The position numbers and the translations under genes were made by a program. Below the pieces are notes generated by a model. The model saw nothing but the letters and a program-made list of their open reading frames with translations. It was not told where the DNA came from and searched no databases. A DNA stretch of 64,000 nt from Microcoleus sp. GTDB taxonomy: Bacteria; Cyanobacteriota; Cyanobacteriia; Cyanobacteriales; Microcoleaceae. Shown piece after piece: positions 1-45,792 of the stretch. Positions within the stretch are counted from its first letter, which is position 1. Each line of letters opens with the position of its first letter. The stretch is from assembly GCA_042408215.1 (NCBI GenBank), contig JAYFMW010000030.1, forward strand, positions 32,001 through 96,000. Reading direction: 5' to 3'.

Positions 1-3000
1 GCGGTGATTTTGACCGATATCGACCAGTTAAGCAGCGTTTTCGGCGGTTTTGACCCCCGCTACACTCTAGAGCCTTTAATGGAAAACGTGCCGGTCTATC
101 TGGATATTAACAACAACGGCATACTAGACCCCAACGAACCGAAGCAGTTGACCAAAAAGGACGATTCTGAGTCGAATCTGGGCAAAACCAACTATCAGTT
201 TACTTTTGACAACTTAGTGCCCGGTACTTACAAAGTGCGAACTGTAGCGCCCAGCGGCTACACGCAGACAGCACCTAGTACCTCGGTTTTCACGGATACC
301 GTGACAACTGCGGGGCAAACTTTTACTCACTTGTTCGGCGTGCACAAAGGTTCCCAAGAGTTGCCCAACTCCGACCCCACTTTTTTGACTGCTGCGCCAA
401 CAACGAAGTTGAAAGCTGGGGAATCCCTAGTTTACAGGGCTTTGGCTTCTGACCCGGATGCGGACGAGGTAACTTACGGTTTGGTTCTCAACCCGGATGG
501 AATGAGCGTAGACCCGAAGAACGGTACTGTAGTTTGGACTCCGACGGCTACTCAGGTTGAGGAATATTATAAAGAGCTACGGGCGACGCGCGATCGTTTG
601 ATTGCTTTCGGTAGAGGAGATTCCGCACCACAGGCTGTGAAGTTCAATGTCGTGCTGCGGGCATCTGACGGCAAGGGCGGTCAGGCTTTGCAGTACGTCG
701 AGGTGGAACTGATACCGCCCAACAATCCTCCCGTCTTTACATCTGCTGCGCCATCCAAAGAGCAACCTCAAGCGGGTAAGCGCTTCGAGTATCGCGCGGT
801 AGCGGAGGATGCTGACGGCGATAATATTGTTTATACGATTTTACCCGGTGCACCGATTGGTGCCGCAATTAACGCGACTACCGGACTGGTAACTTGGACG
901 CCGACAGCGGGACAGTTGGGAACGAATTCATTCACCGTCAAAGCCACTGACAGTAAGGGCTCAGAAGCCAAGTTAGAAGTGCCGCTGCGGGTAATTGAAG
1001 CGATTCCCAACCGCCCTCCTGACATTACATCCAGCCCCCGCACAGTAGCCCGCATCGGCAACGGGTATTTCTACAAACTCGCTGCAACCGACCCCGACGG
1101 CAACCCGATCACCTTTACTTTAGTTTCCAAGCCGGCTGGGATGACCGTTGATGCGGAGGGTTTAGTGTCTTGGATTCCCACAGCTTCGCAAACCGGCCCC
1201 ATCGCAGTATCGGTGTTGGCTAGCGACGGCTTTGGGGGAAGCGATACTCAATCCTGGACTGTTAATGTCTCTAATTCGGCCGTTAACCGACCTCCAAGTA
1301 TTACTTCGACACCGGATACGGTTACTAATTTGGAACGAGTTTACCGTTACCAGCTAACAGGAACCGACCCCGAAGGAGACTATTTGCTGTGGAGTTTGGA
1401 TAATGCTCCCAAGGGTATGGTAATCGATGCTAAAACAGGCAGTCTTAGCTGGCAGCCAACTCCCGAACAAATTGGGGAACAGACTATTGCAGTGCGAGTG
1501 ACTGATGCTAAGGGTTCTTATGTGGGTCAGGAATTCAGTTTAAAGGTAACAGGAATTAACACGCCACCTGCAATTGTTTCGGTTCCAGTCACAGTCGCCG
1601 GAATCAATCAAACCTACAAATATCAAGTAATCGGAACCGACCCGGAAAACGATGCCCTGCGTTATAGTTTGGGAACCAAACCTTCGGGCATGAAGATTGA
1701 TGCCCGGACTGGTTTAATTGAATGGACTCCCGGTACTAATGCTGTAGGTTCCCATGAAGTAGAAGTTTTGGCAACAGATACTCAAGGGGCTGTGGGAAAT
1801 CAGAAGTTTGCAGTATCTGTGGGGACGGCCGCCATCAATGGGCCTCCAACTGTAGTTTCAACTCCCGTATTTGCAGCATCTTTGGGAAGTCAGTACAGTT
1901 ATACAGTGCAGGCGACTGACCCCGATGGTGGCAGTTTAACTTATCAGTTATTGAAAGCACCAATGGGGATGGCAATTAATCCTGCAACTGGATTGTTGAC
2001 TTGGGACAATCCTACTGCTGGAAACCATCAAATAGTAGTCGGCGCTGTGGATGCTGGCGGTTTGGGTGCAGCCCAAGGTTTTACTTTAACTGCGAGGGCA
2101 AATTCTACTCCTGTAATTCCCAATATTCCCCCGCAGCAAGTCGCTAGCGGTCAACCCTATCGTTACGATTTGAAGGCGAATGATGCTGAGGGGGATTTGC
2201 TTGCTTATTCTCTGTTGCAATCTCCTTCGGGCATGACTGTTGATGAATTAGGTCGCATTAGTTGGGTTCCTAAATCGAATGATGTCGGTACGACTCAACC
2301 CGTTCAAATAGCTGTCACCGATACGTTTGGCAAGACTGTTACTGTCTCCTACAATTTAAGCGTTGTCGCGGATACTTCCGCCCCTAAAGTCAATATTGTT
2401 GCCAGCAAAAATACAGTTAATCTCGGAGATTCTGTCACGTTTACCGTCAATGCTGTCGATAACGTGAAAGTTGAATCTTTGGGTTTGACTATCAACGGCA
2501 CTCCTGTAGTTTTGGATGCACAAGGTCAAGCATCTGTCAAGGTAAATAATTTAGGCAGTATTACGGCAGTTGCAACGGCTAAAGATGCGGCTGGAAATGC
2601 CGGAACTGCGACTCAAGTTGTGGCTGCAATTGATACTAGCGATGTCAATGCGCCAACTATCAACATCAGTTTGGAAGATGATGCAGAAATTACCGCACCT
2701 GTCAATATAGTTGGCACAATTAGTGACAGCAATTTAGCTTACTATACATTGGAAGTTGCCCCGGTTGGTGGCGGGCAAATTCCGGGCGATGGCGGAGGAT
2801 TTAAGGAGGTTTATCGGGGAACAGCTGCCGTCACTAACGGAACGATTGCGACATTTGACCCGACTGTTTTGGCTAACGGCGCTTACGTTCTCAAGTTCAC
2901 TGCATTCGACGCTAACGGTAACGGTTCGACTACTGAAAGGACGGTGAATGTTGCTGGTGATTTGAAGTTGGGCAATTTCCGGTTGTCGTTTACTGATTTA

Positions 3001-6000
3001 TCTGTTCCAGTGGCGGGAATTCCGATTAACGTGACTCGGACTTACGATTCTTTGAATGCCAACAATAGCGATGATTTCGGTTACGGCTGGCGGATGGAAT
3101 TCCGGGATACTGATTTGAAGACTTCGCTAAAAGCTGACCCGATTTACGAAGAATTGGGCATCAATACCGTAGCATTTGACAGCAAGACTAAGGTATTCAT
3201 CACCCTACCCGGAGGTAAGCGGGAAACCTTTACTTTTAAGCCGACTCCGAGTCATTTGAATCAGTATTTAGGGGCGGCTGGGCCGGGGGCTGCGATGTAC
3301 AAGCCGGCGTTTGAGTCTCAAAAGGGTTCGACGGTGACTCTGACTGTTAAGGATGCGAATTTGATACGGAATGAGTACGGCGAGTATTACGGGGTGAACG
3401 GGCAGCCCTTCAATCCTGAGAATCCGGCGTTTGGTAGTGTTTATGTGTTGACGACTCTTGAGGGATTGGTTTACGAGATTGATGCGAAGTCTGGGGATTT
3501 GCTGACTGCTACTGATGCGAATGGGAATAAGCTGACTTTTAGCGATGCGGGGATTGCTAGCAGTACGGGTAAGTCGGTGACTTTTGAGAGGGATGCTGCT
3601 GGGAGGATTGTCGGTGTTGTTGACCCGGATGGGAAGAAGGTTAAGTACGAATACGATGCGAAAGGGGATTTGGTTGCTGTTAAGGATAGGGAGAATAATA
3701 CTACTCGGTTTGAGTATGGAGATGAGGACAGACCTCACTTTTTGACTGAGGTTATTGATTCGTTGGGACGCAGTGGAGTTAAGACTGAATACGACGATTC
3801 CGGTCGGTTGAAGCAGATGATTGATGCGAATGGTTCTGCGGTTGAGTTGGTTTACGACCCGAATAATTCGATTCAGAAGGTTAAGGATGTTTTTGGTAAG
3901 GAAACGACTTATGTTTATGACAGTCGCGGGAATGTTTTAACTGAGATTGACCCGTTGGGTAAGCGGATTGACAGGACTTACGATGCCGACAATAACGTTT
4001 TGACTGAAAGTGTAATTACCACTGAGTTAAATGCTGCTGGGAATCCGGTTGAGGTACGGCAAAAGACTGAGTGGACTTACGATGCCAAAGGGAATAAGTT
4101 AACTGAAAAAGACCCGTTGGGCAATGTTTCGCGGTGGACTTACAACAGTCGCGGGCAGGTTTTGACTGAAACTGACGCCTTGGGGAATACTGCGACTTAT
4201 ACCTATTCTCCTAGCGGGAATTTGCTGTCAACTAAGGATGCAAAGGGTAATGTTACTAAGTTCAGCTACGACATGAGGGGAAATCTTATCACCTTTACCG
4301 ATGCAGCCAATAAAGTTACTAACTTTACTTATGATGGTTCGGGAAATGTACTTTCGGTTGAGGATGCTAGCGGCAATAAAACAACTTTCACCTATGATAA
4401 CAGTGGGAATCGTTTAACTGAAACTCGCACGGTAACTACTCCTTCGGGCATTCAACAACTGGTTACTCAATCAACTTACGACAGTAACGGTAAAGTTAAG
4501 TCAACGACTGATGCCTTAGATCGAGTCACAAAATACGAGTATGATGGTAACGGGAATCAAATTGCTGTAATTGATGCCCGCAACAACCAAACCGAATACC
4601 GCTACGATAGTAAAGGTCAGCTTGTTGAAACGATTTATCCCGACAATACTCCCAGCAATTCCGCTGACAATTCGAGAACAATTAATATTTACGATAAGGG
4701 CGGTCGTTTGCGGGCAACTATTGACTCAGACAAGCAAGTAACGCATTACAATTACGACGATGCTGGACGTTTGGTGGAAACGATTTATGCTGATGGAGTG
4801 GATAGTTTGGGTCAGTTGGCAAGCGAGCTCGCGCCCGGTAAAACTCCTGCTACTATAGACTGGACGCAAGTTATCTATCCCGACATTGCGCCTGCTTTCT
4901 TGTCGGACAATCCTAGAAGCAAAACCGAGTATTACAAAAATGGTGATGTCAAAGCTGAGATTGATGAGTTAGGAAATCGCACCGAATACCGCTACGATAA
5001 TAACGGTCGGTTGGTGGAGGTAATTTATCCCGATAATACTCCTACTCTGGCTGACAATCCCCGAACTAAGACAGAATACGATGATTTGGGGCGGACAGTT
5101 GCGAATGTTGATGGTTTGGGACGGGTGACTCGCTACGAGTACGATAATTTGGGACGGTTGGTGAAAACTGTTTATCCCGATGCTACTCCCAACAATTTGT
5201 TAGATAATCCGACTTCTAAGACGGAATACGATAGTTTGGGACGGCGCATTTCTACTACTGACTCGGCTGGTAAAACTGTCAAGTACGAGTACGATGCTTT
5301 AGGTAGGTTGACTGCGGTAGTGCAGACTTTGAATCAGTCGGGAACTAATCCGATTAATTTAAGAACCGAGTACGGTTACGATGAAGCTGGACGGTTGATT
5401 TGGCAGGAGGATGCTGAAGAAAATCGGACTGAGTTTGAGTACGATAAAAACGGGCGTCGGGTTGCTGTAGAATTGCCGCTAACTCAAAGGTCGATTACTA
5501 CTTACGATGAGGTAGGAAACGTTAAGACTGTAACTGATTTTAACGGCAATACTGTTACCTACGGTTACGATGAAGAGAATCGTTTGACGAACAAACAGTT
5601 TTCTGTTATTGGTGAAGTTCCAGTTACGATGACTTACACTCCTAGCGGGCAGATTAAGACTGTTGTTAAGGGGCAGGAAACGACTACTTTTAATTATGAT
5701 GAATTGGGAAGGTTGGTATCGAGAATTGACCCATCAGGGCCGTATTTGGCAAGCGGGGCGACGATTGAGTACGGGTATGATGTCGCTGGCAATCGCACTT
5801 CTGTAAGGACTCCTGCGGGTGTGACTCAGTACGAATATGACGAGCAGAATCGCCTGAAGAAAGTTACCGATCCTGATTTGGCGGTGACGAGTTATTTCTA
5901 CGATGCTGTGGGGAATTTATCGAGGACGCAATTGCCGAATGGGGTTGTGGAAACTCGGGCTTACGATGAGTTGAATCGGTTGAAGTTGTTGGCTTATCAA

Positions 6001-7605
6001 AAGGATGGGGCGACGCTTCAAAGCTTTGATTACAGCTTAGATCCTGTCGGTCATCGGCGAGTTGTTACCGAACAAAACGGGCGCAAGGTTGAGTATGAAT
6101 ATGACGATTTGTATCGATTGATAAAGGAGACAATTACTGATTCGGTTCGGGGAAACCGCATGATTAGTTACGGTTATGATGCTGTGGGTAATCGGTTAAC
6201 TAAGACTGATTCTGTTGCTGGGGTGACGAGTTATGTTTATGACGGTAATGACAGGTTGTTGAGGGAGGAGTTGCGGCAGAATGGTGTTTTAGTAAAAACA
6301 ACTGAGTATCGTTACGATGCGAATGGGAATACTACTCGCAAGATTGAAAACGGTACTCAAGAGACGGTTTATACTTGGAATCAAGAGAAGCGTTTGGTTG
6401 GCGTTCAAACTCCTGCTGGCGAGAATATTAGTTATGCTTACGATGCGGATGGGGTGAGGGTAAGCAAGACTGTTAATGGGGTGACGACTGAGTATTTGGT
6501 TGACAGCAATCGGGATTATTCTCAAGTTTTGGAGGAACGGGTTAATGATGCTTTGATTGCTAGTTACGTCTATGGACTGGATTTGATTAGTCAGGAAAGG
6601 GGGAATGCTGATTCGTATTATTTGGTTGATGGGTTGGGCAGTACGAGGGGGTTGACGAATGCGTCGGGGGTGGTGACTGATACTTATAGTTACGATGCGT
6701 TTGGGAATTTAATTGTTTCTGCTAGTGCTACTGCTAATAATTATCTGTTTGCTGGGGAGCAGTTCGATCCTAATTTAGGCGATTATTATCTCAGACAGCG
6801 GTATTATGACCCTGAAACTGGAAGATTTACTCGGCGGGATGCTTATGAGGGAAACTTTGAAGATCCGATAACGTTACACAAGTACCTTTATGGCAATGCT
6901 AACCCAGTAAGCTTCATTGATCCAACAGGTTTTTTCTCCTCTTCGGCAGAGTTTTCGGTTGCAAATAATATTCGCGATACTCTGACAAAAATTTATGGAG
7001 AGGTAGCAAATCAAACCCTAAGCATTATTACAAGTGGCGGTCAATTTGGTCTAGAAGGCCTTGCTAGCCAATTAGCATGGAACCTCGCACCAGCCGTGTT
7101 TGATACTGGTAAGGATTTTATCAAAGCATTTGGGCGTAGTCCAAAAACTTCTTTTGAGCGAGCTAAAATATTTAGACAGACTCTAAACCTTGGAGAATTT
7201 AACCCGAAAGGCAGCCCAAACTTGGCATTTGCTGATATAAGACTTGGTAATAAAGGGCAAGAGTTTTCTGGCACGCTGCTTTCGCTCTCCGGTTCAACTA
7301 GAGTAAGAACTGCACCAGGCAGTGTTATAGAACCCATGCCAGGTTTAGTTGGCAACGTCTCTGGTAGTATAAACAGAAAGCTTACTCCAAGGATGGACAA
7401 TGGGTATTTGAGATCTAAGGATAGTGAAATCAAACTTTTGGAAGTCATAGCTGACAGGTACTCTGACAATCCCTCTATCAAAGGAAAAATTTACCTGTTT
7501 AGCGAACGCTCACCTTGTCAATCATGCAAAGAAGTGATTAGAGACTTTAAAAAGATGTTTCCGAATATTGAGGTTCGAGTAGAATGGAATCACACATTAC
7601 AGTAA
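1..7605 (+). CDS. RHS1: giant RHS/YD-repeat polymorphic toxin (5' end lies upstream of the window); end of vWA, SdrD-B-like, multiple putative Ig repeats, DUF6531-like, YD barrel, C-terminal deaminase-like toxin
   Basis: 2533-aa open frame. Repeated NxPPxITS..Y.Y.v.AtDpDGD.lty.L..aP.GM.Id..TGl..WTP Ig units, LGNFRLSFTDL..VTRTYDS..FGYGW, many YD repeats, and a core end NPVSFIDPTG (6919-6930). The tip has RSKDSEIKLLE...LFSERSPCQSC, resembling BURPS668_1122-family toxin deaminases. Confidence 0.92.
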   Translation, partial: AVILTDIDQLSSVFGGFDPRYTLEPLMENVPVYLDINNNGILDPNEPKQLTKKDDSESNLGKTNYQFTFDNLVPGTYKVRTVAPSGYTQTAPSTSVFTDTVTTAGQTFTHLFGVHKGSQELPNSDPTFLTAAPTTKLKAGESLVYRALASDPDADEVTYGLVLNPDGMSVDPKNGTVVWTPTATQVEEYYKELRATRDRLIAFGRGDSAPQAVKFNVVLRASDGKGGQALQYVEVELIPPNNPPVFTSAAPSKEQPQAGKRFEYRAVAEDADGDNIVYTILPGAPIGAAINATTGLVTWTPTAGQLGTNSFTVKATDSKGSEAKLEVPLRVIEAIPNRPPDITSSPRTVARIGNGYFYKLAATDPDGNPITFTLVSKPAGMTVDAEGLVSWIPTASQTGPIAVSVLASDGFGGSDTQSWTVNVSNSAVNRPPSITSTPDTVTNLERVYRYQLTGTDPEGDYLLWSLDNAPKGMVIDAKTGSLSWQPTPEQIGEQTIAVRVTDAKGSYVGQEFSLKVTGINTPPAIVSVPVTVAGINQTYKYQVIGTDPENDALRYSLGTKPSGMKIDARTGLIEWTPGTNAVGSHEVEVLATDTQGAVGNQKFAVSVGTAAINGPPTVVSTPVFAASLGSQYSYTVQATDPDGGSLTYQLLKAPMGMAINPATGLLTWDNPTAGNHQIVVGAVDAGGLGAAQGFTLTARANSTPVIPNIPPQQVASGQPYRYDLKANDAEGDLLAYSLLQSPSGMTVDELGRISWVPKSNDVGTTQPVQIAVTDTFGKTVTVSYNLSVVADTSAPKVNIVASKNTVNLGDSVTFTVNAVDNVKVESLGLTINGTPVVLDAQGQASVKVNNLGSITAVATAKDAAGNAGTATQVVAAIDTSDVNAPTINISLEDDAEITAPVNIVGTISDSNLAYYTLEVAPVGGGQIPGDGGGFKEVYRGTAAVTNGTIATFDPTVLANGAYVLKFTAFDANGNGSTTERTVNVAGDLKLGNFRLSFTDLSVPVAGIPINVTRTYDSLNANNSDDFGYGWRMEFRDTDLKTSLKADPIYEELGINTVAFDSKTKVFITLPGGKRETFTFKPTPSHLNQYLGAAGPGAAMYKPAFESQKGSTVTLTVKDANLIRNEYGEYYGVNGQPFNPENPAFGSVYVLTTLEGLVYEIDAKSGDLLTATDANGNKLTFSDAGIASSTGKSVTFERDAAGRIVGVVDPDGKKVKYEYDAKGDLVAVKDRENNTTRFEYGDEDRPHFLTEVIDSLGRSGVKTEYDDSGRLKQMIDANGSAVELVYDPNNSIQKVKDVFGKETTYVYDSRGNVLTEIDPLGKRIDRTYDADNNVLTESVITTELNAAGNPVEVRQKTEWTYDAKGNKLTEKDPLGNVSRWTYNSRGQVLTETDALGNTATYTYSPSGNLLSTKDAKGNVTKFSYDMRGNLITFTDAANKVTNFTYDGSGNVLSVEDASGNKTTFTYDNSGNRLTETRTVTTPSGIQQLVTQSTYDSNGKVKSTTDALDRVTKYEYDGNGNQIAVIDARNNQTEYRYDSKGQLVETIYPDNTPSNSADNSRTINIYDKGGRLRATIDSDKQVTHYNYDDAGRLVETIYADGVDSLGQLASELAPGKTPATIDWTQVIYPDIAPAFLSDNPRSKTEYYKNGDVKAEIDELGNRTEYRYDNNGRLVEVIYPDNTPTLADNPRTKTEYDDLGRTVANVDGLGRVTRYEYDNLGRLVKTVYPDATPNNLLDNPTSKTEYDSLGRRISTTDSAGKTVKYEYDALGRLTAVVQTLNQSGTNPINLRTEYGYDEAGRLIWQEDAEENRTEFEYDKNGRRVAVELPLTQRSITTYDEVGNVKTVTDFNGNTVTYGYDEENRLTNKQFSVIGEVPVTMTYTPSGQIKTVVKGQETTTFNYDELGRLVSRIDPSGPYLASGATIEYGYDVAGNRTSVRTPAGVTQYEYDEQNRLKKVTDPDLAVTSYFYDAVGNLSRTQLPNGVVETRAYDELNRLKLLAYQKDGATLQSFDYSLDPVGHRRVVTEQNGRKVEYEYDDLYRLIKETITDSVRGNRMISYGYDAVGNRLTKTDSVAGVTSYVYDGNDRLLREELRQNGVLVKTTEYRYDANGNTTRKIENGTQETVYTWNQEKRLVGVQTPAGENISYAYDADGVRVSKTVNGVTTEYLVDSNRDYSQVLEERVNDALIASYVYGLDLISQERGNADSYYLVDGLGSTRGLTNASGVVTDTYSYDAFGNLIVSASATANNYLFAGEQFDPNLGDYYLRQRYYDPETGRFTRRDAYEGNFEDPITLHKYLYGNANPVSFIDPTGFFSSSAEFSVANNIRDTLTKIYGEVANQTLSIITSGGQFGLEGLASQLAWNLAPAVFDTGKDFIKAFGRSPKTSFERAKIFRQTLNLGEFNPKGSPNLAFADIRLGNKGQEFSGTLLSLSGSTRVRTAPGSVIEPMPGLVGNVSGSINRKLTPRMDNGYLRSKDSEIKLLEVIADRYSDNPSIKGKIYLFSERSPCQSCKEVIRDFKKMFPNIEVRVEWNHTLQ

Positions 7606-7741
7606 CAATGAAAATTGCATATTTTTCAGCACCGACTAAAGCTTTGTTATACAAGTATAATGCTTTTGCATAAATGATTTAAGCTTGCTATAATAAAGCT
7701 GGCTAGGATGGTGGAGAATTTACCAAAAGTTGATAAAATTT

Positions 7742-8221
7742 ATGTATCTTGAGAAATTCAAAGCACGGTTCGCAGAGTTACAGCATTTATTTCCATACAA
7801 ATTGTTGTCTTGTACGGAGGAACAAATCCACTCCCTTGAACGACAATATGGGCTAACTCTTCCTATGGCTTATAAACAGTTTCTACTGTGGGGAGGGGTT
7901 TGCGCCGGAGGACTTTTTGAAGGTTCTAACTATTCTTATGACGATCTTTCAGAACTGCGAGAAGGAGCTGAAGGACTTTTGGAGAGGGATGAGTTTCCAG
8001 AGCCACTTCCAAAAGACGCATTCGTACTTATGATGCATCAAGGTTATATATTTTGGTTGTTCAAAACTTCTGAGGGTGACGATCCACCCGTTTATGGTTA
8101 TGAAGAGCGTGACGTAGGAGTTCCACCAGTTCCTTTCAAAAAAATCTCTTCTAGCTTCAGTAAATTTTTAGAAGAAGCATTAGAAGAAGCATCTAATAGA
8201 CTCAAAAGGTTGCAAGAATAA
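7742..8221 (+). CDS. SMI1/KNR4 (SUKH) family immunity protein
   Basis: CTEEQIHSLERQYGLTLPMAYKQFL...HQGY.FWLF....DDPPVY...SFSKFL is the SUKH pattern, and the gene lies directly downstream of the RHS1 tip. ATG 7742 is preferred over TTG 7730. Confidence 0.88.
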   Translation: MYLEKFKARFAELQHLFPYKLLSCTEEQIHSLERQYGLTLPMAYKQFLLWGGVCAGGLFEGSNYSYDDLSELREGAEGLLERDEFPEPLPKDAFVLMMHQGYIFWLFKTSEGDDPPVYGYEERDVGVPPVPFKKISSSFSKFLEEALEEASNRLKRLQE

Positions 8222-15648: not shown

Positions 15649-15667
15649 AGCAAAAGGTTTTTGAGAT

Positions 15668-36406: not shown

Positions 36407-39400
36407 TTGGCAATTGACGTTTCTGGGAGCACGGCTGCTCCGTTTGATGGCCCGGCTGGAGTAGATAACGTTCTCAAGGCTCAAGTCGCCGCCACCCTAA
36501 CTCTTATCGATACATTAATAGCTCAAGGTTTGGGCGATCGCATCAATATCGGCTTGATTCCCCATCAATACACCGCCCAAATTCAAGATATGGACCCCGC
36601 GACGCCGGGAGTTCAGACATACACCACTCCCAACGCAGATAAAAACAACAACGGCATTTCCGACATCCGGGAAATTCTAGCAACCAACACTTACACCATC
36701 CCCAACGGTCACAATGACTTTACCAAAGCCGTACAGGCGATCGACCTTCTTGTCCCTTTGATGCCGGGAGATAAGAATGTTATCTTCATGTCCGACGGCT
36801 ACGGTGCTCTAGATGCCACTGTTGCAGCTCTCGTGGGGGCCGACCTCAAAACTAAGGGCATCGGCTTGACAGCTTTTGGTATCGGCAAATATTCGACCCT
36901 GGATACCATCAAAAAACTTGACCCCGATGCGGTGATTTTGACCGATATCGACCAGTTAAGCAGCGTTTTCGGCGGTTTTGACCCCCGCTACACTCTAGAG
37001 CCTTTAATGGAAAACGTGCCGGTCTATCTGGATATTAACAACAACGGCATACTAGACCCCAACGAACCGAAGCAGTTGACCAAAAAGGACGATTCTGAGT
37101 CGAATCTGGGCAAAACCAACTATCAGTTTACTTTTGACAACTTAGTGCCCGGTACTTACAAAGTGCGAACTGTAGCGCCCAGCGGCTACACGCAGACAGC
37201 ACCTAGTACCTCGGTTTTCACGGATACCGTGACAACTGCGGGGCAAACTTTTACTCACTTGTTCGGCGTGCACAAAGGTTCCCAAGAGTTGCCCAACTCC
37301 GACCCCACTTTTTTGACTGCTGCGCCAACAACGAAGTTGAAAGCTGGGGAATCCCTAGTTTACAGGGCTTTGGCTTCTGACCCGGATGCGGACGAGGTAA
37401 CTTACGGTTTGGTTCTCAACCCGGATGGAATGAGCGTAGACCCGAAGAACGGTACTGTAGTTTGGACTCCGACGGCTACTCAGGTTGAGGAATATTATAA
37501 AGAGCTACGGGCGACGCGCGATCGTTTGATTGCTTTCGGTAGAGGAGATTCCGCACCACAGGCTGTGAAGTTCAATGTCGTGCTGCGGGCATCTGACGGC
37601 AAGGGCGGTCAGGCTTTGCAGTACGTCGAGGTGGAACTGATACCGCCCAACAATCCTCCGGTCTTTACATCTGCTGCGCCATCCAAAGAGCAACCTCAAG
37701 CGGGTAAGCGCTTCGAGTATCGCGCGGTAGCGGAGGATGCTGACGGCGATAATATTGTTTATACGATTTTACCCGGTGCACCGATTGGTGCCGCAATTAA
37801 CGCGACTACCGGACTGGTAACTTGGACGCCGACAGCGGGACAGTTGGGAACGAATTCATTCACCGTCAAAGCCACTGACAGTAAGGGCTCAGAAGCCAAG
37901 TTAGAAGTGCCGCTGCGGGTAATTGAAGCGATTCCCAACCGCCCTCCTGACATTACATCCAGCCCCCGCACAGTAGCCCGCATCGGCAACGGGTATTTCT
38001 ACAAACTCGCTGCAACCGACCCCGACGGCAACCCGATCACCTTTACTTTAGTTTCCAAGCCGGCTGGGATGACCGTTGATGCGGAGGGTTTAGTGTCTTG
38101 GATTCCCACAGCTTCGCAAACCGGCCCCATCGCAGTATCGGTGTTGGCTAGCGACGGCTTTGGGGGAAGCGATACTCAATCCTGGACTGTTAATGTCTCT
38201 AATTCGGCCGTTAACCGACCTCCAAGTATTACTTCGACACCGGATACGGTTACTAATTTGGAACGAGTTTACCGTTACCAGCTAACAGGAACCGACCCCG
38301 AAGGAGACTATTTGCTGTGGAGTTTGGATAATGCTCCCAAGGGTATGGTAATCGATGCTAAAACAGGCAGTCTTAGCTGGCAGCCAACTCCCGAACAAAT
38401 TGGGGAACAGACTATTGCAGTGCGAGTGACTGATGCTAAGGGTTCTTATGTGGGTCAGGAATTCAGTTTAAAGGTAACAGGAATTAACACGCCACCTGCA
38501 ATTGTTTCGGTTCCAGTCACAGTCGCCGGAATCAATCAAACCTACAAATATCAAGTAATCGGAACCGACCCGGAAAACGATGCCCTGCGTTATAGTTTGG
38601 GAACCAAACCTTCGGGCATGAAGATTGACCAAAAGACTGGTTTGATTGAATGGACTCCGGCTACTAATGCTGTAGGTTCTCTTGAAGTAGAGGTTTTAGC
38701 AACAGATACCCAGGGGGCGGTGGGGAATCAGAGATTTGCAGTATCTGTGGGCACTACTGCTATCAATCAGCCTCCAACTGTAGTTTCCAGCCCCGTATTT
38801 GCAGCATCTTTAGGGAGTGCGTACACCTATACAGTACAAGCGACTGACCCGGATGGTAACGCTTTAACTTATCAATTATTGAAAGCACCAATGGGGATGG
38901 CAATTAATCCGACAACTGGATTGCTAACTTGGGCTAATCCGATTGCTGGAAACCATCAAATAGTAGTCGGCGCTGTAGATGCTGGCGGCTTGGGGGCAGC
39001 CCAAGGTTTTACATTAACTGCGAGGGCAAATTCTACTCCTGTAATTCCCAATATTCCCCCGCAACAAGTCGCTAGCGGTCAACCCTATCGTTACGATTTG
39101 AAGGCGAATGATGCTGAGGGAGATTTGCTTTCTTATTCTCTGTTGCAATCTCCAACTGGCATGACTGTTGATGAATTTGGGCGGATTAGTTGGGTTCCTA
39201 AATCGAATGATGTCGGCACGACTAAGCCAGTTCAAATTGCTGTCATCGATACCTTTGGCAAGACTGTTACTGTTTCTTACAATTTAAGCGTTGTCGCTGA
39301 TACTGTCGCCCCGAAAGTAAATTTAATTGCAAGCAAGAATGCAGCTAATGTTGGGGAATCGGTAACGTTTACAGTCAATGCTGTAGATAATGTCAAAGTC

Positions 39401-42400
39401 GAGTCTTTGGGATTGACAATTAACGGCACTCCGGTTGTCATAGATGCACAAGGCAAGGCAACTGTCAAGTTAAATAATTCAACTCCAATCACAGCAGTTG
39501 CAACAGCTAAAGATGCGGCTGGGAATGTAGGGAATGCGACTCAAACTGTAGCAGCAATTGACCCCACCGATGTCAATGCGCCTGTTATAAATATCGCCCT
39601 GGAAGATGATGCAGAAATCACCGCGCCCTTCAATATTACTGGCACAATTAGCGACAGCAATTTAGCATACTATACATTGGAAGTTGCTCCGGTTGGTGGC
39701 GGGCAAATTCCGGGCGATGGCGGAGGATTTAAGGAGGTTTATCGCGGAACTGCTGCTGTCAGCAACGGAACGGTTGCGACATTCGACCCGACTATTTTGG
39801 CTAACGGCGCTTACGTTCTCAAATTCACTGCATTTGACGCTAACGGTAACGGTTCGACTACTGAAAGGACGGTGAATGTTGCTGGTGATTTGAAGTTGGG
39901 GAATTTCCGGTTATCCTTTACTGATTTATCGGTTCCAGTGGCTGGTATTCCGATTAATGTAACTCGAACTTACGATTCTTTGAATGCCAATTCTAGCGAT
40001 GATTTTGGGTACGGCTGGCGGATGGAGTTCCGAGATACTGATTTGAAGACTTCGCTAAAAGCTGACCCGACTTTTGAGGAGTTGGGGATAAATACTGTAC
40101 CGTTTGATAGCAAGACTAAGGTGTTTATTACGTTACCGGGTGGTAAGCGGGAAACGTTTACTTTTAAGCCGACTCCGCATCATCTGAATCAGTATTTAGG
40201 AGGGGCTGGGCCGGGTGCTCAGATGTTTAAACCGGCTTTTGAGTCTCAGAAAGGTTCGACGATGACTCTGACGGTGAAGGACGCGAATTTGGTACGGAAT
40301 GAGAACGGGTATTACGGGGTGAACGCACAGCCCTTCAATCCCGAAAATCCTGCTTTTGGTGGGGTGTATGTGTTGACTACTAAGGAGGGATTGGTTTACG
40401 AGATTGATGCGAAGTCTGGGGATTTGCTGACTGCTACTGATGCGAATGGGAATAAGCTGACTTTTAGCGATGCGGGGATTGCAAGTTCGACTGGTAAGTC
40501 GGTGACTTTTGAGAGGGATGTTGCTGGGAGGATTGTCGGTGTTGTTGACCCGGATGGGAAGAAGGTTAAGTACGAATACGATGCGAAAGGGGATTTGGTT
40601 GCTGTTAAGGATAGGGAGAATAATACTACGACTTTTAAGTATGAAGATGAAGACAGACCGCACTTTTTAACTGAGGTTATCGATTCGTTGGGACGCAGTG
40701 GAGTTAAGACTGAATACGACGATTCCGGCCGCCTCAAGCAGATGGTGGATGCGAATGGTTCGGCGGTGGAGTTGGTTTACGACCCGAATAATTCGATTCA
40801 GAAGGTTAAGGATGTTTTCGGTAAGGAAACTACTTACGTTTACGACAGTCGCGGGAACGTTTTAACTGAGATTGACCCGTTAGGTAAGAGGGTTGATAGG
40901 ACTTTTGATGGGGATAATAACGTTCTGACTGAGACTGTAATTACCACTGAGTTAAATGCGGCGGGGACTTCGGTTGAGGTGAGGTCGAAGACTGAGTGGA
41001 CTTACGACGCGAAAGGGAATAAGTTAAGTGAGAAAGACCCGTTAGGGAATATTACGCGGTGGACTTATAACAGTCGGGGGCAGGTTTTGACTGAGACTGA
41101 TGCGTTGGGGAATAGTGCGAGTTATACTTATTCTCCTAGCGGGAATTTGCTGTCTACTAAAGATGCGAAGGGTAATGTTACCAGATACAGCTACGACACC
41201 AGAGGCAACATTTTAACCATCACCGACGCCACCAACAACACCACCAACTTCCAATACAATGCAGCAGGCGACGTAACCAATTTACAAGACTCATCCGGCA
41301 ACAAAGCTACCTACATCTACGACAGCAACGGCAATATGCTGCGGGAGACAATGACAGTATTAACTCCCACTGGCCCGCAAGAATTCGTAACAGAATGGAC
41401 TTACAACAATGAAGGACAAATCAAGTCAGTTACTCAAGGAGGCAGCACCGTAACATACGAATACGAAGCGGGGCGCCAAAGTGCCCGCATCGAAAACAAC
41501 CTCCGTACCGAATACCGTTACAACTCCCAAGGTAAGTTAGTTGAAACTATTTATCCCGACGATACTCCTAGCAACTCTGACAATTCCCGAACCATTACTG
41601 TTTACGATAAAGGAGGTCGTCAAAGGGCTACTATTGACCGTGACGGACGAGTTACTCACTACAAATACGACGACGCGGGACGGCTGACTGAAACTATTTA
41701 TCCCAACGAAACAGCCAATCAAGTACAGCAATTGCTGAACGCTATTTCTCCGGGTCAAACTCCTCAATCTGTTGACTGGACAAATATCGTTTATCCCGAC
41801 AGTACGCCTGCTTATTTAACCAGCAATTCTCGAACCAAAACTGAATACTACAAAACTGGAGAAGTCAAAGCAGAAATCGATGTTTCGGGGAACCGTACCG
41901 AGTACGAATACGATGCAGCAGGTCGCGTCAGTCTCACTCGTTTTGATGCTACCAATTACATCACCTATACCTACGATGCAGTTGGCAATAAAATTAGCGA
42001 AACTGTTTTTGCTGGAGGAATTTCGACAACTACTACTTATGATAGTAAAGGTCAGGTAACAGCAACGACAGACCCGAATGGCAAAACTACTCAATTTGAA
42101 TACGACGCTGAAGGACAACTTAAAACTGTTGTCGATGCTTTGCTTCATCGTACTGAATACGCTTACGATAGTGCGGGCAATTTGACAAGTGTTAAGGATG
42201 CTTTGGGTCAGGTAACGGCTTATGAATACGATGACAAAGGTCGCCGCAAGGCTGTAATTCGATCGGACAATAAGCGTTCTACTTTTGTTTACGATGATGT
42301 GGCTAACACTGTCACGATTACGGATTTTAATAACAAGACGGTTAAGTACACTTACAACGACCAAAATCAAGTTGTTGCTAAGCAGTATCAGAATGTTAGC

Positions 42401-44350
42401 GGTGCAACTGTTAGCGTTACTTACGCTACAAATGGATTGGAAGAAACTATTACTGACAGTCGGGGTGCGACTGTTTACAAGTACGACGATTTGGGGCAGG
42501 TAATTTCTCGAAAAGACCCGGTTGGTCCTTATCTTGCTAGCGGGAATTCGATCGAATATAAGTATGAATCGGGGCAAGTTAGCGAGGTTAAGACTCCGAC
42601 TCGCACGACTGGCTACACCTATGATTCTGAGGGGCGTTTGAAGACGGTTAGTACGCCGGATATGGGTACGGTGACGTATGATTACGACTCTCTGGGAAAT
42701 CTCTGGAAAACTTCGTATCCGAACAATTTAGTTGAGACTCGTATCTACGATAGTTTGGGTCGTTTGGATTTGGTGAAGAATGTTAAGGTTGACCCGGTTA
42801 CGAAGCTGGAGTTGCAGGTTGTTTCTAGTTACGATTATGCGGTTGATAATGTTGGTAATCGCAGGGAGGTATTAGAAAATAACGGTCGTAAGGTTGAGTA
42901 CAAGTACGATGATTTGAATCGGTTGTTGGAGGAGAAGATTACTAATGACCCTAGTGGGAATAATCGGGTTGTTAGTTATACTTACGATGCTGTGGGGAAT
43001 CGGTTGACTAAGACTGATTCGGTGAGTGGGGTAACTACTTATACTTACAATAGTTTGAATCAACTCTCTACGTCTGTAACTAATGGTTTAACTACTACTT
43101 ATATCTACGATAGTAATGGGAATTTGATTTCGGAGGTGACTGGAAGCAATTCTACTGTTTATCGGTGGGAGAATGATGGTGAGAATCGGTTGATGGGGGT
43201 GACGGTTAATGAGGGTGGAGTTACTCGGAATGTTGGGTATCAATATAATGCTCAAGGAATTCGAGTTGGTAAGGTTGTTGATGGGGTGGAGACTCGGTAT
43301 TTGATTGATGAGTTGCAGCCTTATTCTCAGGTTGTTGAGGAGTACGATGCTGCGGGCAATCCGAAGGGTTCTTATGTCTACGGGTACGATTTGGTTGGGA
43401 AGTTGCAGGGAAGTCAGCCGTCGTTCTATCACGCTGATGGGTTGGGTTCGACTCGGTTGCTGACGAATGGTTTGGGTGGGGTTACTGATAGTTATGCTTA
43501 TGATGCTTATGGCAATTTAATTGCTTCGGCTGGTGCTTCTAATAATGCTTATTTGTTTGCTGGGGAACAGCGGGATGGGGAGACTGGTTTGGATTATTTG
43601 CGGGCGCGGTATTATGACCCGTTGGTGGGGAGGTTTGTTTCTGCTGATGCTTATGAGGGTACGCTGAATGACCCGATGAGTTTGCACGATTATCAGTACG
43701 CTCATGCTAATCCGGTTGTTAATACTGACCCTAGTGGGTATTTTACACTGTCAGAATTTGCAACAATAGGAGCAATTATAGGAGCACTTTCTGGAACATC
43801 TATCGGTGGTTATGCGGGATACGTTAATAATGGAAATAAAATTGGCTGGCCAGTATTTGCATACGCTCTTGCTGGTGGTTTAACAGGACTTGTTTTAGGA
43901 GCTCAAGTAGGAACTCTTATAGGAACACTTTCAGGAGCTACAACAGGACTAGGAAGTGGTGGTGCATTAGGAACTACTATAAAAATGACAGCCAAGTTAG
44001 TTCAACAAATGCGTAGAATAATTTCTAGTAAGTCATTAATTTATAGTGCATCTGGCAAACTAAAAAGTTACTCTGCAATAGCATTTTCTTCAGGAGTAAT
44101 TTCAGGCGGAGTTGCCGGAACATTTACTCCTGATAAGTACAATGATGAAGTTTCAGTAGCTTCCTTATCTACATATAGTGGTGGTAATGCTTTAATTATT
44201 GGTTATAGGTGGCTTCAACAATCCATACTAGGTGTTACCCCCTCTGTCCCCGGAGGAATTGAGTTAGCATCGGTATACATTACAGGCTTTAATCTAGGTT
44301 ATTTTGCTGCTGTTGGAGTACGTAATTTAGTAGAAGGTTCAAAGAATTAG
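36407..44350 (+). CDS. RHS5: 5'-truncated vWA/Ig/DUF6531-like/RHS protein with a hydrophobic Gly-rich C-terminal tip (no Hint)
   Basis: 2647-aa ORF with a TTG start; homology extends back to 36335. DPSG is at 43727-43738, and the tip has several GxxxG-rich hydrophobic segments. Confidence 0.9.
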   Translation: MAIDVSGSTAAPFDGPAGVDNVLKAQVAATLTLIDTLIAQGLGDRINIGLIPHQYTAQIQDMDPATPGVQTYTTPNADKNNNGISDIREILATNTYTIPNGHNDFTKAVQAIDLLVPLMPGDKNVIFMSDGYGALDATVAALVGADLKTKGIGLTAFGIGKYSTLDTIKKLDPDAVILTDIDQLSSVFGGFDPRYTLEPLMENVPVYLDINNNGILDPNEPKQLTKKDDSESNLGKTNYQFTFDNLVPGTYKVRTVAPSGYTQTAPSTSVFTDTVTTAGQTFTHLFGVHKGSQELPNSDPTFLTAAPTTKLKAGESLVYRALASDPDADEVTYGLVLNPDGMSVDPKNGTVVWTPTATQVEEYYKELRATRDRLIAFGRGDSAPQAVKFNVVLRASDGKGGQALQYVEVELIPPNNPPVFTSAAPSKEQPQAGKRFEYRAVAEDADGDNIVYTILPGAPIGAAINATTGLVTWTPTAGQLGTNSFTVKATDSKGSEAKLEVPLRVIEAIPNRPPDITSSPRTVARIGNGYFYKLAATDPDGNPITFTLVSKPAGMTVDAEGLVSWIPTASQTGPIAVSVLASDGFGGSDTQSWTVNVSNSAVNRPPSITSTPDTVTNLERVYRYQLTGTDPEGDYLLWSLDNAPKGMVIDAKTGSLSWQPTPEQIGEQTIAVRVTDAKGSYVGQEFSLKVTGINTPPAIVSVPVTVAGINQTYKYQVIGTDPENDALRYSLGTKPSGMKIDQKTGLIEWTPATNAVGSLEVEVLATDTQGAVGNQRFAVSVGTTAINQPPTVVSSPVFAASLGSAYTYTVQATDPDGNALTYQLLKAPMGMAINPTTGLLTWANPIAGNHQIVVGAVDAGGLGAAQGFTLTARANSTPVIPNIPPQQVASGQPYRYDLKANDAEGDLLSYSLLQSPTGMTVDEFGRISWVPKSNDVGTTKPVQIAVIDTFGKTVTVSYNLSVVADTVAPKVNLIASKNAANVGESVTFTVNAVDNVKVESLGLTINGTPVVIDAQGKATVKLNNSTPITAVATAKDAAGNVGNATQTVAAIDPTDVNAPVINIALEDDAEITAPFNITGTISDSNLAYYTLEVAPVGGGQIPGDGGGFKEVYRGTAAVSNGTVATFDPTILANGAYVLKFTAFDANGNGSTTERTVNVAGDLKLGNFRLSFTDLSVPVAGIPINVTRTYDSLNANSSDDFGYGWRMEFRDTDLKTSLKADPTFEELGINTVPFDSKTKVFITLPGGKRETFTFKPTPHHLNQYLGGAGPGAQMFKPAFESQKGSTMTLTVKDANLVRNENGYYGVNAQPFNPENPAFGGVYVLTTKEGLVYEIDAKSGDLLTATDANGNKLTFSDAGIASSTGKSVTFERDVAGRIVGVVDPDGKKVKYEYDAKGDLVAVKDRENNTTTFKYEDEDRPHFLTEVIDSLGRSGVKTEYDDSGRLKQMVDANGSAVELVYDPNNSIQKVKDVFGKETTYVYDSRGNVLTEIDPLGKRVDRTFDGDNNVLTETVITTELNAAGTSVEVRSKTEWTYDAKGNKLSEKDPLGNITRWTYNSRGQVLTETDALGNSASYTYSPSGNLLSTKDAKGNVTRYSYDTRGNILTITDATNNTTNFQYNAAGDVTNLQDSSGNKATYIYDSNGNMLRETMTVLTPTGPQEFVTEWTYNNEGQIKSVTQGGSTVTYEYEAGRQSARIENNLRTEYRYNSQGKLVETIYPDDTPSNSDNSRTITVYDKGGRQRATIDRDGRVTHYKYDDAGRLTETIYPNETANQVQQLLNAISPGQTPQSVDWTNIVYPDSTPAYLTSNSRTKTEYYKTGEVKAEIDVSGNRTEYEYDAAGRVSLTRFDATNYITYTYDAVGNKISETVFAGGISTTTTYDSKGQVTATTDPNGKTTQFEYDAEGQLKTVVDALLHRTEYAYDSAGNLTSVKDALGQVTAYEYDDKGRRKAVIRSDNKRSTFVYDDVANTVTITDFNNKTVKYTYNDQNQVVAKQYQNVSGATVSVTYATNGLEETITDSRGATVYKYDDLGQVISRKDPVGPYLASGNSIEYKYESGQVSEVKTPTRTTGYTYDSEGRLKTVSTPDMGTVTYDYDSLGNLWKTSYPNNLVETRIYDSLGRLDLVKNVKVDPVTKLELQVVSSYDYAVDNVGNRREVLENNGRKVEYKYDDLNRLLEEKITNDPSGNNRVVSYTYDAVGNRLTKTDSVSGVTTYTYNSLNQLSTSVTNGLTTTYIYDSNGNLISEVTGSNSTVYRWENDGENRLMGVTVNEGGVTRNVGYQYNAQGIRVGKVVDGVETRYLIDELQPYSQVVEEYDAAGNPKGSYVYGYDLVGKLQGSQPSFYHADGLGSTRLLTNGLGGVTDSYAYDAYGNLIASAGASNNAYLFAGEQRDGETGLDYLRARYYDPLVGRFVSADAYEGTLNDPMSLHDYQYAHANPVVNTDPSGYFTLSEFATIGAIIGALSGTSIGGYAGYVNNGNKIGWPVFAYALAGGLTGLVLGAQVGTLIGTLSGATTGLGSGGALGTTIKMTAKLVQQMRRIISSKSLIYSASGKLKSYSAIAFSSGVISGGVAGTFTPDKYNDEVSVASLSTYSGGNALIIGYRWLQQSILGVTPSVPGGIELASVYITGFNLGYFAAVGVRNLVEGSKN

Positions 44351-44351: not shown

Positions 44352-44819
44352 ATGTTATTTCAATTTATCAAAAATCAACATCAAAGTGTCAAGCAACTTT
44401 TAGGGTTTATGACCAATCAGCATTTTGAGGAAGATCGCAGAGTTTTCTTAGAGAGCAATCCTTCTCAGTCAGAATCAGATTTTATTATAATTTGCTTTCA
44501 GGAACCTTGCAGTAAACAACAAGAGGTAGCACTTGCTATTCGTCGTGCAATTGCCCTACTTGGAAATATTGAAAGTGAATTTATTCGAGCCGAAGTTTCT
44601 TTTGAGGATCTAGATTTACTTTCATTTTGGAATTTGTGTGGGGAGGCTGGATTTAATACGACAAAATTTATTGAAACCATTCAATCAGAACTTCATGTTC
44701 AACTTCTAGAAGAACAACTTGAACAAGCATTTGTTCGAGACCCCGACCTAAACACACACATGAAAATTTATGAATTCATAAATGAGTTTTATTCCTGGTA
44801 TAAAATGATCAGTATTTAG
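44352..44819 (+). CDS. Hypothetical protein, putative immunity to the RHS5 tip
   Basis: Starts 1 nt after the RHS5 stop; AT-rich like the tip. Confidence 0.7.
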   Translation: MLFQFIKNQHQSVKQLLGFMTNQHFEEDRRVFLESNPSQSESDFIIICFQEPCSKQQEVALAIRRAIALLGNIESEFIRAEVSFEDLDLLSFWNLCGEAGFNTTKFIETIQSELHVQLLEEQLEQAFVRDPDLNTHMKIYEFINEFYSWYKMISI

Positions 44820-45025: not shown

Positions 45026-45733
45026 ATGACACCTACAGTAACCATCCAAGAACTAGCCTTAGCCCTAACAGCCAAAAACCACTCTCCCACGCTCCTCAAC
45101 TCGGACTTCCTCAAATACAGCGACATCGTCCCCCCCGACTGGGAACTCGCCCGCCCCCCCATTTTCAGCCCCCAAATCTCTCAAATAGCCTTCACCAACG
45201 GCATCAATATCGTCGCCCAATCGAACGCCATCACTTTCATCGAATCCCTGAGTACAAAGTCACAAGAAGATGTAAAAATTCCCGACATTATCCGCAAATA
45301 CGTTGAAGCGCTACCCCGCACCGACTATCAAAATTTGAGCATCAATCCGAGAAGTTTTGTCACCTTTGAAGGGGGAGATGAAAATGCGGCCCGCGAGTTC
45401 ATCACCTCCACTTTACTCTCGAAAGGCACTTGGTCTGATGTGGGGAAAGCTCCCGTCAAAGCTGCGGTTAATTTAGTTTACTCTCTGGAACAAGGAGAAC
45501 TTAACTTGAGCTTTGCCGAAGCATTGCTGCAACTTCAAGATGCAGAACCGACTCCGGCTGTCTTGTTTTCGGGAAGCTTCCAGTACGAAATTGCAGGAGA
45601 ATTAGAAGGAGAAAAACTGCAACATTTGTACAAGCTTTTGGAAAATTGGCAGCCGGATTTAGAAGCTTACCGGGAAATTGTCAACGTGCGGTTTTTGGGG
45701 AAAGAAGTTGAACAGTTACCGTCTGCCGCGTAA
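45026..45733 (+). CDS. Conserved 235-aa hypothetical protein (copy 3)
   Basis: Near-identical to 23719-24426; last gene of the array. Confidence 0.88.
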   Translation: MTPTVTIQELALALTAKNHSPTLLNSDFLKYSDIVPPDWELARPPIFSPQISQIAFTNGINIVAQSNAITFIESLSTKSQEDVKIPDIIRKYVEALPRTDYQNLSINPRSFVTFEGGDENAAREFITSTLLSKGTWSDVGKAPVKAAVNLVYSLEQGELNLSFAEALLQLQDAEPTPAVLFSGSFQYEIAGELEGEKLQHLYKLLENWQPDLEAYREIVNVRFLGKEVEQLPSAA

Positions 45734-45748
45734 AGGATAAGATTGTGG

Positions 45749-45792
45749 GGGCGATCGCACGACGCAAACAAATTCTAGTTGTGCGATCGCCC
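45749..45792. terminator. HIP1-containing inverted repeat, possible terminator closing the array
   Basis: GGGCGATCGCAC (45749-45760) and GTGCGATCGCCC (45781-45792) are perfect 12-bp arms, 15 nt after the stop. Confidence 0.55.

Follow-up and report, generated by a model that had tools for sequence, protein, structure and literature searches.

The locus described here, a tandem array of giant RHS genes in a 64,000-nucleotide stretch of a Microcoleus sp. genome (assembly GCA_042408215.1, contig JAYFMW010000030.1, positions 32,001 to 96,000 of the forward strand; hereafter the window), has its closest described parallels in the rhs loci of enterobacteria and in the wider class of polymorphic toxins. 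In the account of Jackson et al. 2009 (PMC2935791), the attached and dissociated core fragments at a locus are all of one rhs clade, and in Salmonella, as described by Koskiniemi et al. 2014 (PMC3967940), the head can acquire an orphan through duplication and recombination. In the polymorphic toxins surveyed by Zhang et al. 2012 (PMC3482391), a 3′ toxin cassette is swapped on a constant 5′ body, and such systems are reported there as relatively rare in cyanobacteria. Elsewhere, the majority of toxins are described as bound to a single core domain (PMC8125069), and orphans have been defined by 3′ homology alone (bioRxiv 10.1101/2025.05.08.652813). Rhs cores are, in this usual picture, the constant container and the tips the variable part, with exchange taking place within one core clade. 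We uncovered a polymorphic-toxin locus with one complete giant gene (the head) and nine headless cassettes, in which whole barrels (the RHS/YD shells preceding the toxin tips) have very probably replaced one another on shared stalks; the likely route is homologous recombination within a ~1-kb conserved joint at the barrel front.

The resemblances to the enterobacterial loci as described by Jackson et al. include the intact gene followed by strings of headless core-plus-tip fragments of variable length with their downstream genes, the PxxxxDPxG boundary, the proposal of homologous recombination and the frequent location on mobile elements. Unlike them, the cyanobacterial locus combines five barrel lineages (30-64% amino acid identity) on one stalk with the crossover at the barrel front, has no link to VgrG or PAAR, and encodes an intact protein of 7,061 amino acids versus about 1,400. 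As in the Salmonella rhs genes (PMC3967940), the orphan tips of one lineage are the main tips of another; the evidence there is experimental and concerns a tip, whereas ours is comparative and concerns whole barrels and stalks. Vibrio's type VI secretion system (T6SS) arrays (Kirchberger et al. 2017, PMC5361080) likewise feature rare homology-facilitated illegitimate joints spread by ordinary recombination, but contain mostly orphan immunity genes rather than complete barrel, tip and immunity cassettes in stacked blocks. With the stalked polymorphic toxins of Zhang et al. the array has in common N-terminal trafficking, central adhesion/RHS and Hint processing regions, nuclease and deaminase tips, SUKH, ankyrin and HEAT immunity proteins, and the cassette principle; in contrast to that survey, we find the joint in 39 of 300 other genomes of the order, and the “constant” body turns out to be modular. 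Finally, the bacterial teneurin-like proteins (PMC13018210) are also large surface-type proteins with an RHS/YD shell around a polymorphic toxin and an immunity gene behind it, and the PDB entries 9ifo and 9pt5 match the barrel. The Microcoleus proteins differ from these in that a Pfam scan recovered no NHL domain and no teneurin superfold domain beyond a below-cutoff YD-shell match, and the main text of that paper contains none of the strings orphan, recombin-, cyanobacteri- and planctomyc-. A search of the full-text literature, its scope stopping short of supplements (Additional File 1 of Zhang et al. may list such loci) and most subscription papers, returned nothing on this cyanobacterial family or on whole-barrel exchange.

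Organization of the array and its single head gene

The source genome (G000; G-numbers denote genomes and C-numbers contigs) comprises 7.36 Mb in 30 contigs, is 99.98% complete and contains the window as G000:C30:32001-96000; the closest named homologues of the window's proteins are from Microcoleus, Tychonema and Oscillatoria. A preliminary description of the window had reported at least 46 kb of same-strand RHS DNA, and positions 1-45733 do lie on the plus strand, with 98% open reading frame (ORF) coverage. The only head and two more tip/immunity pairs lie upstream, and the first RHS gene of the window (RHS1) is truncated at its 5′ end, its frame opening at window position -1034, right behind the first copy of a gene that we term gene X. 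The whole array spans ~76 kb (G000:C30:1467-77755, in the window up to 45755), with ten tip/immunity pairs, five barrel types and one head. Inspection of the upstream DNA for the N-terminus, as proposed in the same description, led to the sole complete gene at G000:C30:1467-22652. Its 7,061-amino-acid product displays a Ser/Thr-rich leader, two DUF4114 domains, PPC-like repeats, putative Ig repeats, a DUF6531 domain, barrel A and a NucA/NucB tip (PF14040, E 1.1e-5); a vWA-like domain was recognised by eye from its motif. The head's own immunity gene (SMI1+HEAT), an orphan of barrel D with a TPR immunity gene, and gene X copy 1 lie between the head and the window. The remainder of the nine headless cassettes, each with its immunity gene, follow, and none of the five large RHS genes inside the window has an N-terminus of its own.

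The YD cores are recovered by PF05593, TIGR01643 and TIGR03696, six DPxG motifs are present in the window, and the barrels match solved Rhs shells in sequence with E-values of 1e-47 to 1e-27. The units display a YD core ending in PxxxxDPxG and a variable C-terminal tip domain with an adjacent immunity gene, as in Rhs/YD polymorphic toxins, and the headless core-plus-tip fragments downstream of one intact gene that mark a classical orphan array. In contrast to the loci of Jackson et al., however, the orphan cores are not all of the head's clade, since five lineages occur at one locus. Judged from sequence, then, the array is a member of the Rhs polymorphic toxins and resembles Rhs orphan arrays, departs from them in the same-clade feature, and is of neither the T6SS nor the contact-dependent inhibition (CDI) type.

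Eight tips are found in the window: six units end in DPxG, the other two are Hint-arm orphans, and a small or repeat-rich gene follows each tip. The eight different tip/immunity pairs counted in the preliminary description are thus all present, but they are not all unrelated, as the RHS3 tip and immunity gene are 78% identical over 755 bp to those of the first Hint orphan. Pfam names three of the tips (a BURPS668_1122-type deaminase, an SsdA_C deaminase and DUF6972) and, among their partners, SMI1/KNR4, Imm5 and ankyrin proteins; the four small partner genes are called immunity genes by position only. The tips are GC-poor (0.36-0.40 vs 0.45-0.49). Nearly all tips, across all units, open with a helical, hydrophobic stretch matching [FY]-[FST]-x-x-[ED], and one post-DPxG segment can precede different toxin ends (e.g., in four D-type tips), a possible further level of exchange.

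Exchange of whole barrels among relatives

The stalk-joint region was detected in 12 of 78 other genomes of the genus. The 13 head genes compared, some of them broken or cut by contig ends, display five barrel lineages: barrel A on two (G000 C30 and C19), barrel B on two (the first head of G025 C2, and G095), barrel C on one (G080), barrel D on five (G025 C3, G013, G067, G098 and G078 C284) and barrel E/F on three (G019, the second head of G025 C2, and G078 C350). These lineages are 78-94% identical within and 30-64% identical in amino acids between each other. The four barrel types that had been proposed for the window, with RHS3 and RHS4 sharing one, emerged again from the barrel comparison (B in RHS1, C in RHS2, E in RHS3 and RHS4, D in RHS5), and each of them is borne by full-length heads in relatives. 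Within G025 C2, two heads 50 kb apart show no mismatch up to 16,619 bp; their homology stops within the joint, at 17,585, and one then continues as barrel B, the other as barrel E/F. Moreover, orphans of one genome are head cassettes of another: the barrel, tip and immunity gene of RHS5 constitute the head cassette of G098 (92% over 4.05 kb, with the final 100 amino acids identical), and in G080 the RHS2 block occupies the head position (95% over 5.97 kb). Orphan slots change barrels too, given that one fixed junction, a barrel-C core fragment fused to a stalk, has barrel D behind it in G025 C4 and G003 but barrel B in G080.

The same contrast recurs quantitatively. In 28 same-genome pairs of different lineage, the joint is 93% (84-98) identical versus 43% (27-62) for the barrel, in amino acids. 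A FastTree phylogeny of the first 250 amino acids of the joint clusters by host, whereas a quick IQ-TREE phylogeny of the barrels (with long-branch warnings) clusters by lineage, spanning cyanobacterial families. Both were built from the 32 intact units in which a single open frame contains the joint as well as DPxG, so that frameshifted or contig-cut units (RHS2, RHS3, the upstream orphan, the C19 units and G078 C350) do not figure in them. Beyond the family, six of seven loci, chosen for at least two joint matches on one contig, carry differing barrels (26-53% amino acid identity), four of them with DNA arms 90-96% identical; in G297, one barrel stands behind the joint, accompanied by a mid-barrel orphan. 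The preliminary proposal of a common stalk on which the entire barrel can be exchanged as a cassette is hence supported across species and paralogous loci, not within a clone. Related proteins of 3,700-7,800 amino acids are named from Nostoc, Microcystis, Acaryochloris, Leptolyngbya and planctomycetes, and 382 matches expose a large family of Ig-stalk RHS proteins, 4,000-7,800 amino acids long, in cyanobacteria and planctomycetes.

Nested levels of homology

Self-BLAST recovered the homology arms of three depths that had been noted in the window: kilobase stalk/joint arms (24875-29461 vs 36331-40935, 93%; 17456-18127 vs 40264-40935, 88%), a 268-bp core arm (15676-15943, 87% to RHS2) and Hint arms starting at 22787 and 34178. 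To these we add two further levels, namely variation in the stalk and the stacking of entire blocks at gene X. The nesting of the proposed library holds, although “library” applies as an evolutionary stock rather than as a demonstrated switch. Between a common leader and the joint, stalks of three types occur; in G000, the heads on C30 and C19 differ in stalk but are 99.8-100% identical before and after it. The Hint domain is present in five of 40 DPxG units, all five of the E/F barrel lineage; Hint orphans occur only after E/F barrels, and the short core orphans observed sit behind barrels of their own lineage. The same-clade rule of Jackson et al. therefore holds inside each lineage, and it is the joint that breaks it between lineages.

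The leader and DUF4114 region also heads giant non-RHS proteins (G000:C7:121419-131033, C8:166427-175274, L040:12819-20000 and L021:4306-13722), whose C-termini differ and behind which small genes lie, some of them pentapeptide-repeat-like on inspection; these proteins resemble a second toxin family with the same front end.

Integrity of the assembly and apparent stability of the array

Among 20 listed metagenome runs, seven (freshwater or unlabelled, from three studies) contain at least half of the words of window 6500-16400, and four runs cover 29-30 of 30 bins of window 5001-25000. One of the runs could be the source of the assembly. Single zero-difference contigs bridge the immunity-to-arm junctions at 7738-8470, 15990-17548, 16827-17712 and 22120-22907, and one contig of run X1 bridges the upstream orphan tip, the TPR gene and gene X copy 1. 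A junction shortened by 549 bp within the array (24329 joined to 24879) is present in runs X1 and X2. In the upstream 19 kb, barrel A and its tip are essentially unchanged in runs X1, X2 and X3; the head barrel, tip and first orphan show 0-5 differences per listed contig in X1 and X2, and the window cassettes occur in all four runs. No placed metagenome contig spans a whole block, so block order lacks independent proof. None of the four runs shows the one-base frame breaks at 12534 and 21905/6, and one of the four lacks that at about 13579, so that these are probably sequencing or assembly errors; the remaining irregularities are a 16-bp duplication at 10356-10371 in RHS2 and a break in Hint orphan 2.

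Misassembly of strain variants or paralogous loci, the obvious hazard for such an array, might be suspected from the collapsed repeats at the 5′ end of the head (C13, C15 and C19 overlap the C30 start at 99.5-99.9%) and from a 1.9-kb near-identical tract between RHS1 and RHS5. However, the copies are 7-25% apart along most arms, independent samples bridge the junctions without differences, and mixed arrays also occur in the six-contig genome G025 and in other families, making this explanation unlikely in the extreme.

These samples also bear on a more dynamic reading, that of an active switching library, in which recombination among the cells of a clone, likely through tandem duplication, would place orphan barrels or tips on the head often enough for selection to act. 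The head and the orphans do share arms of 0.7-5 kb with 84-91% identity in proper orientation, the orphan barrels retain long open frames (several of their breaks looking like assembly errors), the Salmonella rhs orphans provide a precedent (PMC3967940), and one contig of run X5 joins 13861 to 15925, a form of RHS2 with the tip of the core orphan, albeit with a short side of only 22 letters. Yet near-identical cassettes and junctions recur in the samples of three studies, the head and the orphans share no long identical tract, and the contig joins are either short-sided or between homologous places of paralogues. We consider such switching rather unlikely; the array, which looks stable across samples, is better read as an accreted stock than as a fast switch.

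Contig joins at L002 4549-10619 and 3084-9848 and at window 6660-9749 and 9190-9647 were not taken for rearrangements, since such a signal also arises from paralogous loci, and coverage gaps in run X3 over the upstream-orphan tip and TPR gene and in run X1 at 23010-23676 have no joining contig and were not counted. Contigs of the RNA run X17 carry related barrel pieces, though contigs alone cannot indicate transcription. One of these, from a soil RNA library (L002:6182-7854), is ~95% identical to barrel A and diverges exactly after DPxG, pairing barrel A with another tip.

Gene X and the stacking of blocks

Gene X (235 amino acids) is present in four copies, 89-91% identical in DNA, which split the array into head-to-tail blocks: copy 1 upstream of the window, copy 2 at 23719..24426, copy 3 at 35724..36334 and copy 4, which ends the array, at 45026..45733. 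It is a putative member of the TIGR04255 family by its Atlas cluster name, but has no Pfam or NCBIfam family, and a literature search for TIGR04255 was empty. The predicted structure (pLDDT 86) gave a best Foldseek TM of about 0.3, to TBP-like sheets, and we claim no function from the fold. X follows the array in seven of seven genus genomes found through the joint alone and in one of seven outside-family stretches. In addition, an X homologue stands ahead of a Hint-toxin orphan in L066, and three stand behind the RHS array of G185.

Copies 1 and 2 are joined to the mid-stalk by an identical junction 22 bp behind the stop (24448/24450 for copy 2), inside a GCGATCGC palindrome, which we take to be HIP1. 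A 12-bp inverted repeat whose arms contain GCGATCGC, read from the sequence, follows copy 4 at 45749..45792, and the internal junctions break in its first arm, after GCGAT. Copy 3 has the same junction shortened by a 549-bp deletion. The X-to-stalk junction is absent from all 14 stretches of relatives searched; the simplest reading is one illegitimate joint, subsequently multiplied by ordinary recombination. As a side observation, only four GCGATCGC sites occur in the 76-kb array versus ~50 expected (0.69 per kb genome-wide), the block junction nonetheless lying inside one.

One accidental junction, found in no other genome examined, is also what would be expected if displacement and tandem duplication on a mobile element had simply left the orphans behind, kept for immunity or not at all, with barrels that never return to a head. 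The displacement model proposed for enterobacterial rhs (PMC2935791) and the fragmented paralogous loci on C19 and C7 fit this view as well. However, barrel replacement behind a fixed junction has also taken place in orphan slots, and the stalks of RHS1, RHS4 and RHS5 share identical runs of 330-968 bp (shuffled maximum 152-175), the 968-bp run (vs a shuffled maximum of 154) indicating recent exchange. The orphans therefore take part in recombination and can donate in other cells, and we regard the purely relic account as unlikely.

Alternatively, the headless genes behind X might be expressed from the promoter of X and act intracellularly, as toxin–antitoxin-like addiction modules for the mobile element. 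A promoter-like site (44969-44998) is conserved ahead of the X copies, the hairpin behind X is lost at the junction, and in RHS1 a GTG start stands 7 nt after AGGA. Against this, RHS4 has GTA in place of that GTG, RHS5 is joined out of frame to the cut X, a promoter scan found two sites versus 2.3 in shuffles, i.e., no excess, and the junction is unique to G000; such a role is improbable. X may simply be the right-hand homology arm.

A mobile element and paralogous arrays

The contigs C13 and C15 both end in the first 5.4-5.7 kb of C30, leaving the upstream side of the array ambiguous, with synteny to G025 C3 and G080 favouring C15. The flanks code for a relaxase, ParA and an extra DnaB (C15) and for extra DnaN, DnaX and HolA, a coupling protein and an integrase (C30), in a gene order matching G025 C3 and G003 C36. 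By this gene content, the array is placed in an integrated plasmid-like element. At window 53592-60490, a RecD2-like helicase, a second DnaN, DnaX and HolA (33-58% to their chromosomal counterparts) are syntenic in G003 C36 and G025 C3; the element, as judged from these genes, brings its own clamp and clamp loader. Further arrays on C18, C19 and C7, those on C19 and C7 being fragmented, can serve as donors. Across the C13, C15 and C19 ends and the C30 start, two heads share a near-identical 6.8-kb 5′ region including 1.5 kb of upstream DNA; one head seems chromosomal (beside secA) and one on the mobile element, pointing to recent duplication, conversion or a collapsed repeat. An integron-like array was rejected: the array contains no recombinase, its junction sequences differ, and the nearest integrase lies 56 kb downstream at the element's edge.

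Candidate export routes

Two familiar routes were considered and rejected. For T6SS-delivered Rhs proteins a PAAR domain would be expected, but none is found in the head or genome-wide (0 matches), extending the earlier observation that the window has none; a contractile-system locus, with single sheath and base-plate V matches, lies about 470 kb away. As for CDI, the head has no TPS, FHA or CdiB Pfam family, and the upstream genes on C13 and C15 are transposases, secA or dnaB/parA. On inspection the leader has no hydrophobic signal, and an Atlas search with its 140 amino acids was without match. Among 120 relatives, D[PS]L[IT]G occurs within the first 600 residues in 24, and at least two RTX-like motifs in three. 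Among relatives P0083-P0202, those of planctomycete type start with a basic stretch and an LE.LE.R.LL motif, presumably LEPR-XLL, while the cyanobacterial ones often have D[PS]L[IT]G near residues 80-125; their sequences possibly reflect phylum-specific export leaders on one protein family.

A PPIase-HlyB-HlyD operon is present on C28, unlinked to the array, and X homologues stand upstream of such an operon in distant loci (L057, L062 and L063). From these gene neighbourhoods, we tentatively propose that export might proceed via this cyanobacterial type I system with X as a helper. In L057 and L062, the gene preceding X ends in a DUF4114-like motif.

A model for cassette turnover and its implications

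We propose that rare illegitimate joints would make an orphan once, and that ordinary recombination with incoming DNA, from a mobile element or the paralogous loci, would then displace, replace or stack cassettes, with the stalk as the left-hand and gene X as the right-hand boundary of this turnover. Barrels of different lineages would be too diverged to recombine, so that the joint would offer the only route to another lineage's tips, while the core and Hint arms would swap tips inside one lineage. The orphans would be retained for their immunity genes and as a slow reservoir. By analogy with the family, the head protein is predicted to be exported to the surface, where its Ig/PPC/vWA stalk would bind neighbours; the tip would be cut off at DPxG, and also at Hint where present, delivering a nuclease, deaminase or membrane toxin to related cells.

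Several points weigh against this proposal. No rearrangement inside a clone was seen, and the order of the cassettes looks stable, the same ones recurring across independent samples. The longest identical run between the head and the RHS1, RHS4 or RHS5 stalks is 125 bp; together with the recurrence of the cassettes, this places the exchange on an evolutionary scale. All genome comparisons set species representatives or paralogues side by side, and kin are not independent; the data do not tell whether transfer ran from orphan to head or the other way, and the long perfect tracts could stem partly from repeat collapse in assembly. Five of the eight window tips have no significant Pfam match. With respect to export, the locus has no exporter gene, X precedes the type I operon in only three of 14 distant loci, and the best VIA-align comparison of X, to the McsB kinase domain (Z 8.2, rmsd 4.0, 156 aligned), is not a clear fold match.

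With such exchange of barrels, the container itself is very probably a polymorphic, ancient and exchangeable allele, which lifts the one-clade limit. Why a locus should maintain several barrel types then comes into question, with cargo compatibility (as hinted by the restriction of Hint to E/F), target entry or kin recognition as conceivable reasons. Natural alleles with the same stalk and different barrels provide ready-made comparisons. Mats and crusts of the Microcoleus type consist of tightly packed filaments, in which such contact weapons could decide strain composition. A bolder and distinctly doubtful extension would see in cyanobacteria, and perhaps planctomycetes, an undescribed contact-toxin system with its own N-terminal export and helper X, in which leader, stalk, barrel and tip are independently exchangeable, ancient barrel lineages set target entry, and a clone can switch barrels out of its own array under competition.

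Features along the window

All genes of the array in the window lie on the plus strand. RHS1 (1..7605) comprises the vWA end, the Ig stalk, the joint from 2962 and barrel B; its DPTG ends at 6930 and is followed by the BURPS668_1122-type deaminase tip (PF14424, E 4.6e-20) and an SMI1/KNR4 (SUKH) immunity gene at 7730..8221 (E 1.5e-13). The RHS2 orphan (8302..14713) has the second stalk type, 88-89% identical to the paralogous loci on C18/C19, the joint from 10112, barrel C and a DPTG ending at 13978; its tip has no Pfam match, a PD-(D/E)xK-like motif being recognised by eye, and its frame breaks are the duplication and the breaks at 12534 and about 13579 mentioned above. An ankyrin-repeat putative immunity gene (14740..15648, by Pfam) separates it from the core-arm orphan (15665..16645; TIGR03696, E 4.3e-22), in which 268 bp of barrel C core with a DPTG ending at 15943 lead into a new tip, again with a putative ankyrin-repeat immunity gene (16685..17338, by Pfam).

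The RHS3 orphan (17451..22494) starts with the 0.67-kb joint arm (17456-18127) and continues with barrel E, a DPTG ending at 21167, Hint and tip. It is followed by an 83-amino-acid putative immunity gene of no family, assigned by position (22505..22756), by Hint-arm orphan 1 (22787..23347), in which a PT-HINT domain precedes a tip akin to that of RHS3, and by an 80-amino-acid putative immunity gene (23357..23599) paralogous to that at 22505-22756. Behind X copy 2, the RHS4 orphan (24450..33881) displays a vWA and Ig stalk arm, the joint from 28416, barrel E, a DPTG ending at 32501, Hint and a DUF6972 tip (PF22319, E 1.3e-40), with a 72-amino-acid putative immunity gene of no family, likewise positional, at 33878..34096. 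Hint-arm orphan 2 (34174..35002; PT-HINT, E 1.1e-24) bears an SsdA-type deaminase tip (SsdA_C, E 2.5e-9) in two frames and is coupled to an Imm5 immunity gene at 35015..35620 (E 4.3e-27). Finally, behind X copy 3, the RHS5 orphan (36331..44350) has a vWA and Ig stalk arm, the joint from 39890, barrel D, a DPSG ending at 43738 and a hydrophobic, glycine-rich tip, followed by a 155-amino-acid putative immunity gene of no family, placed by position (44352..44819).

Directly behind the array, window 47287-51565 contains an IS605/TnpB-like gene together with a reverse transcriptase of the group II intron type in two frames, and between the replication genes of the element a 60-bp tandem repeat and short inverted repeats are found at 55067-55200 and 58670-59502.

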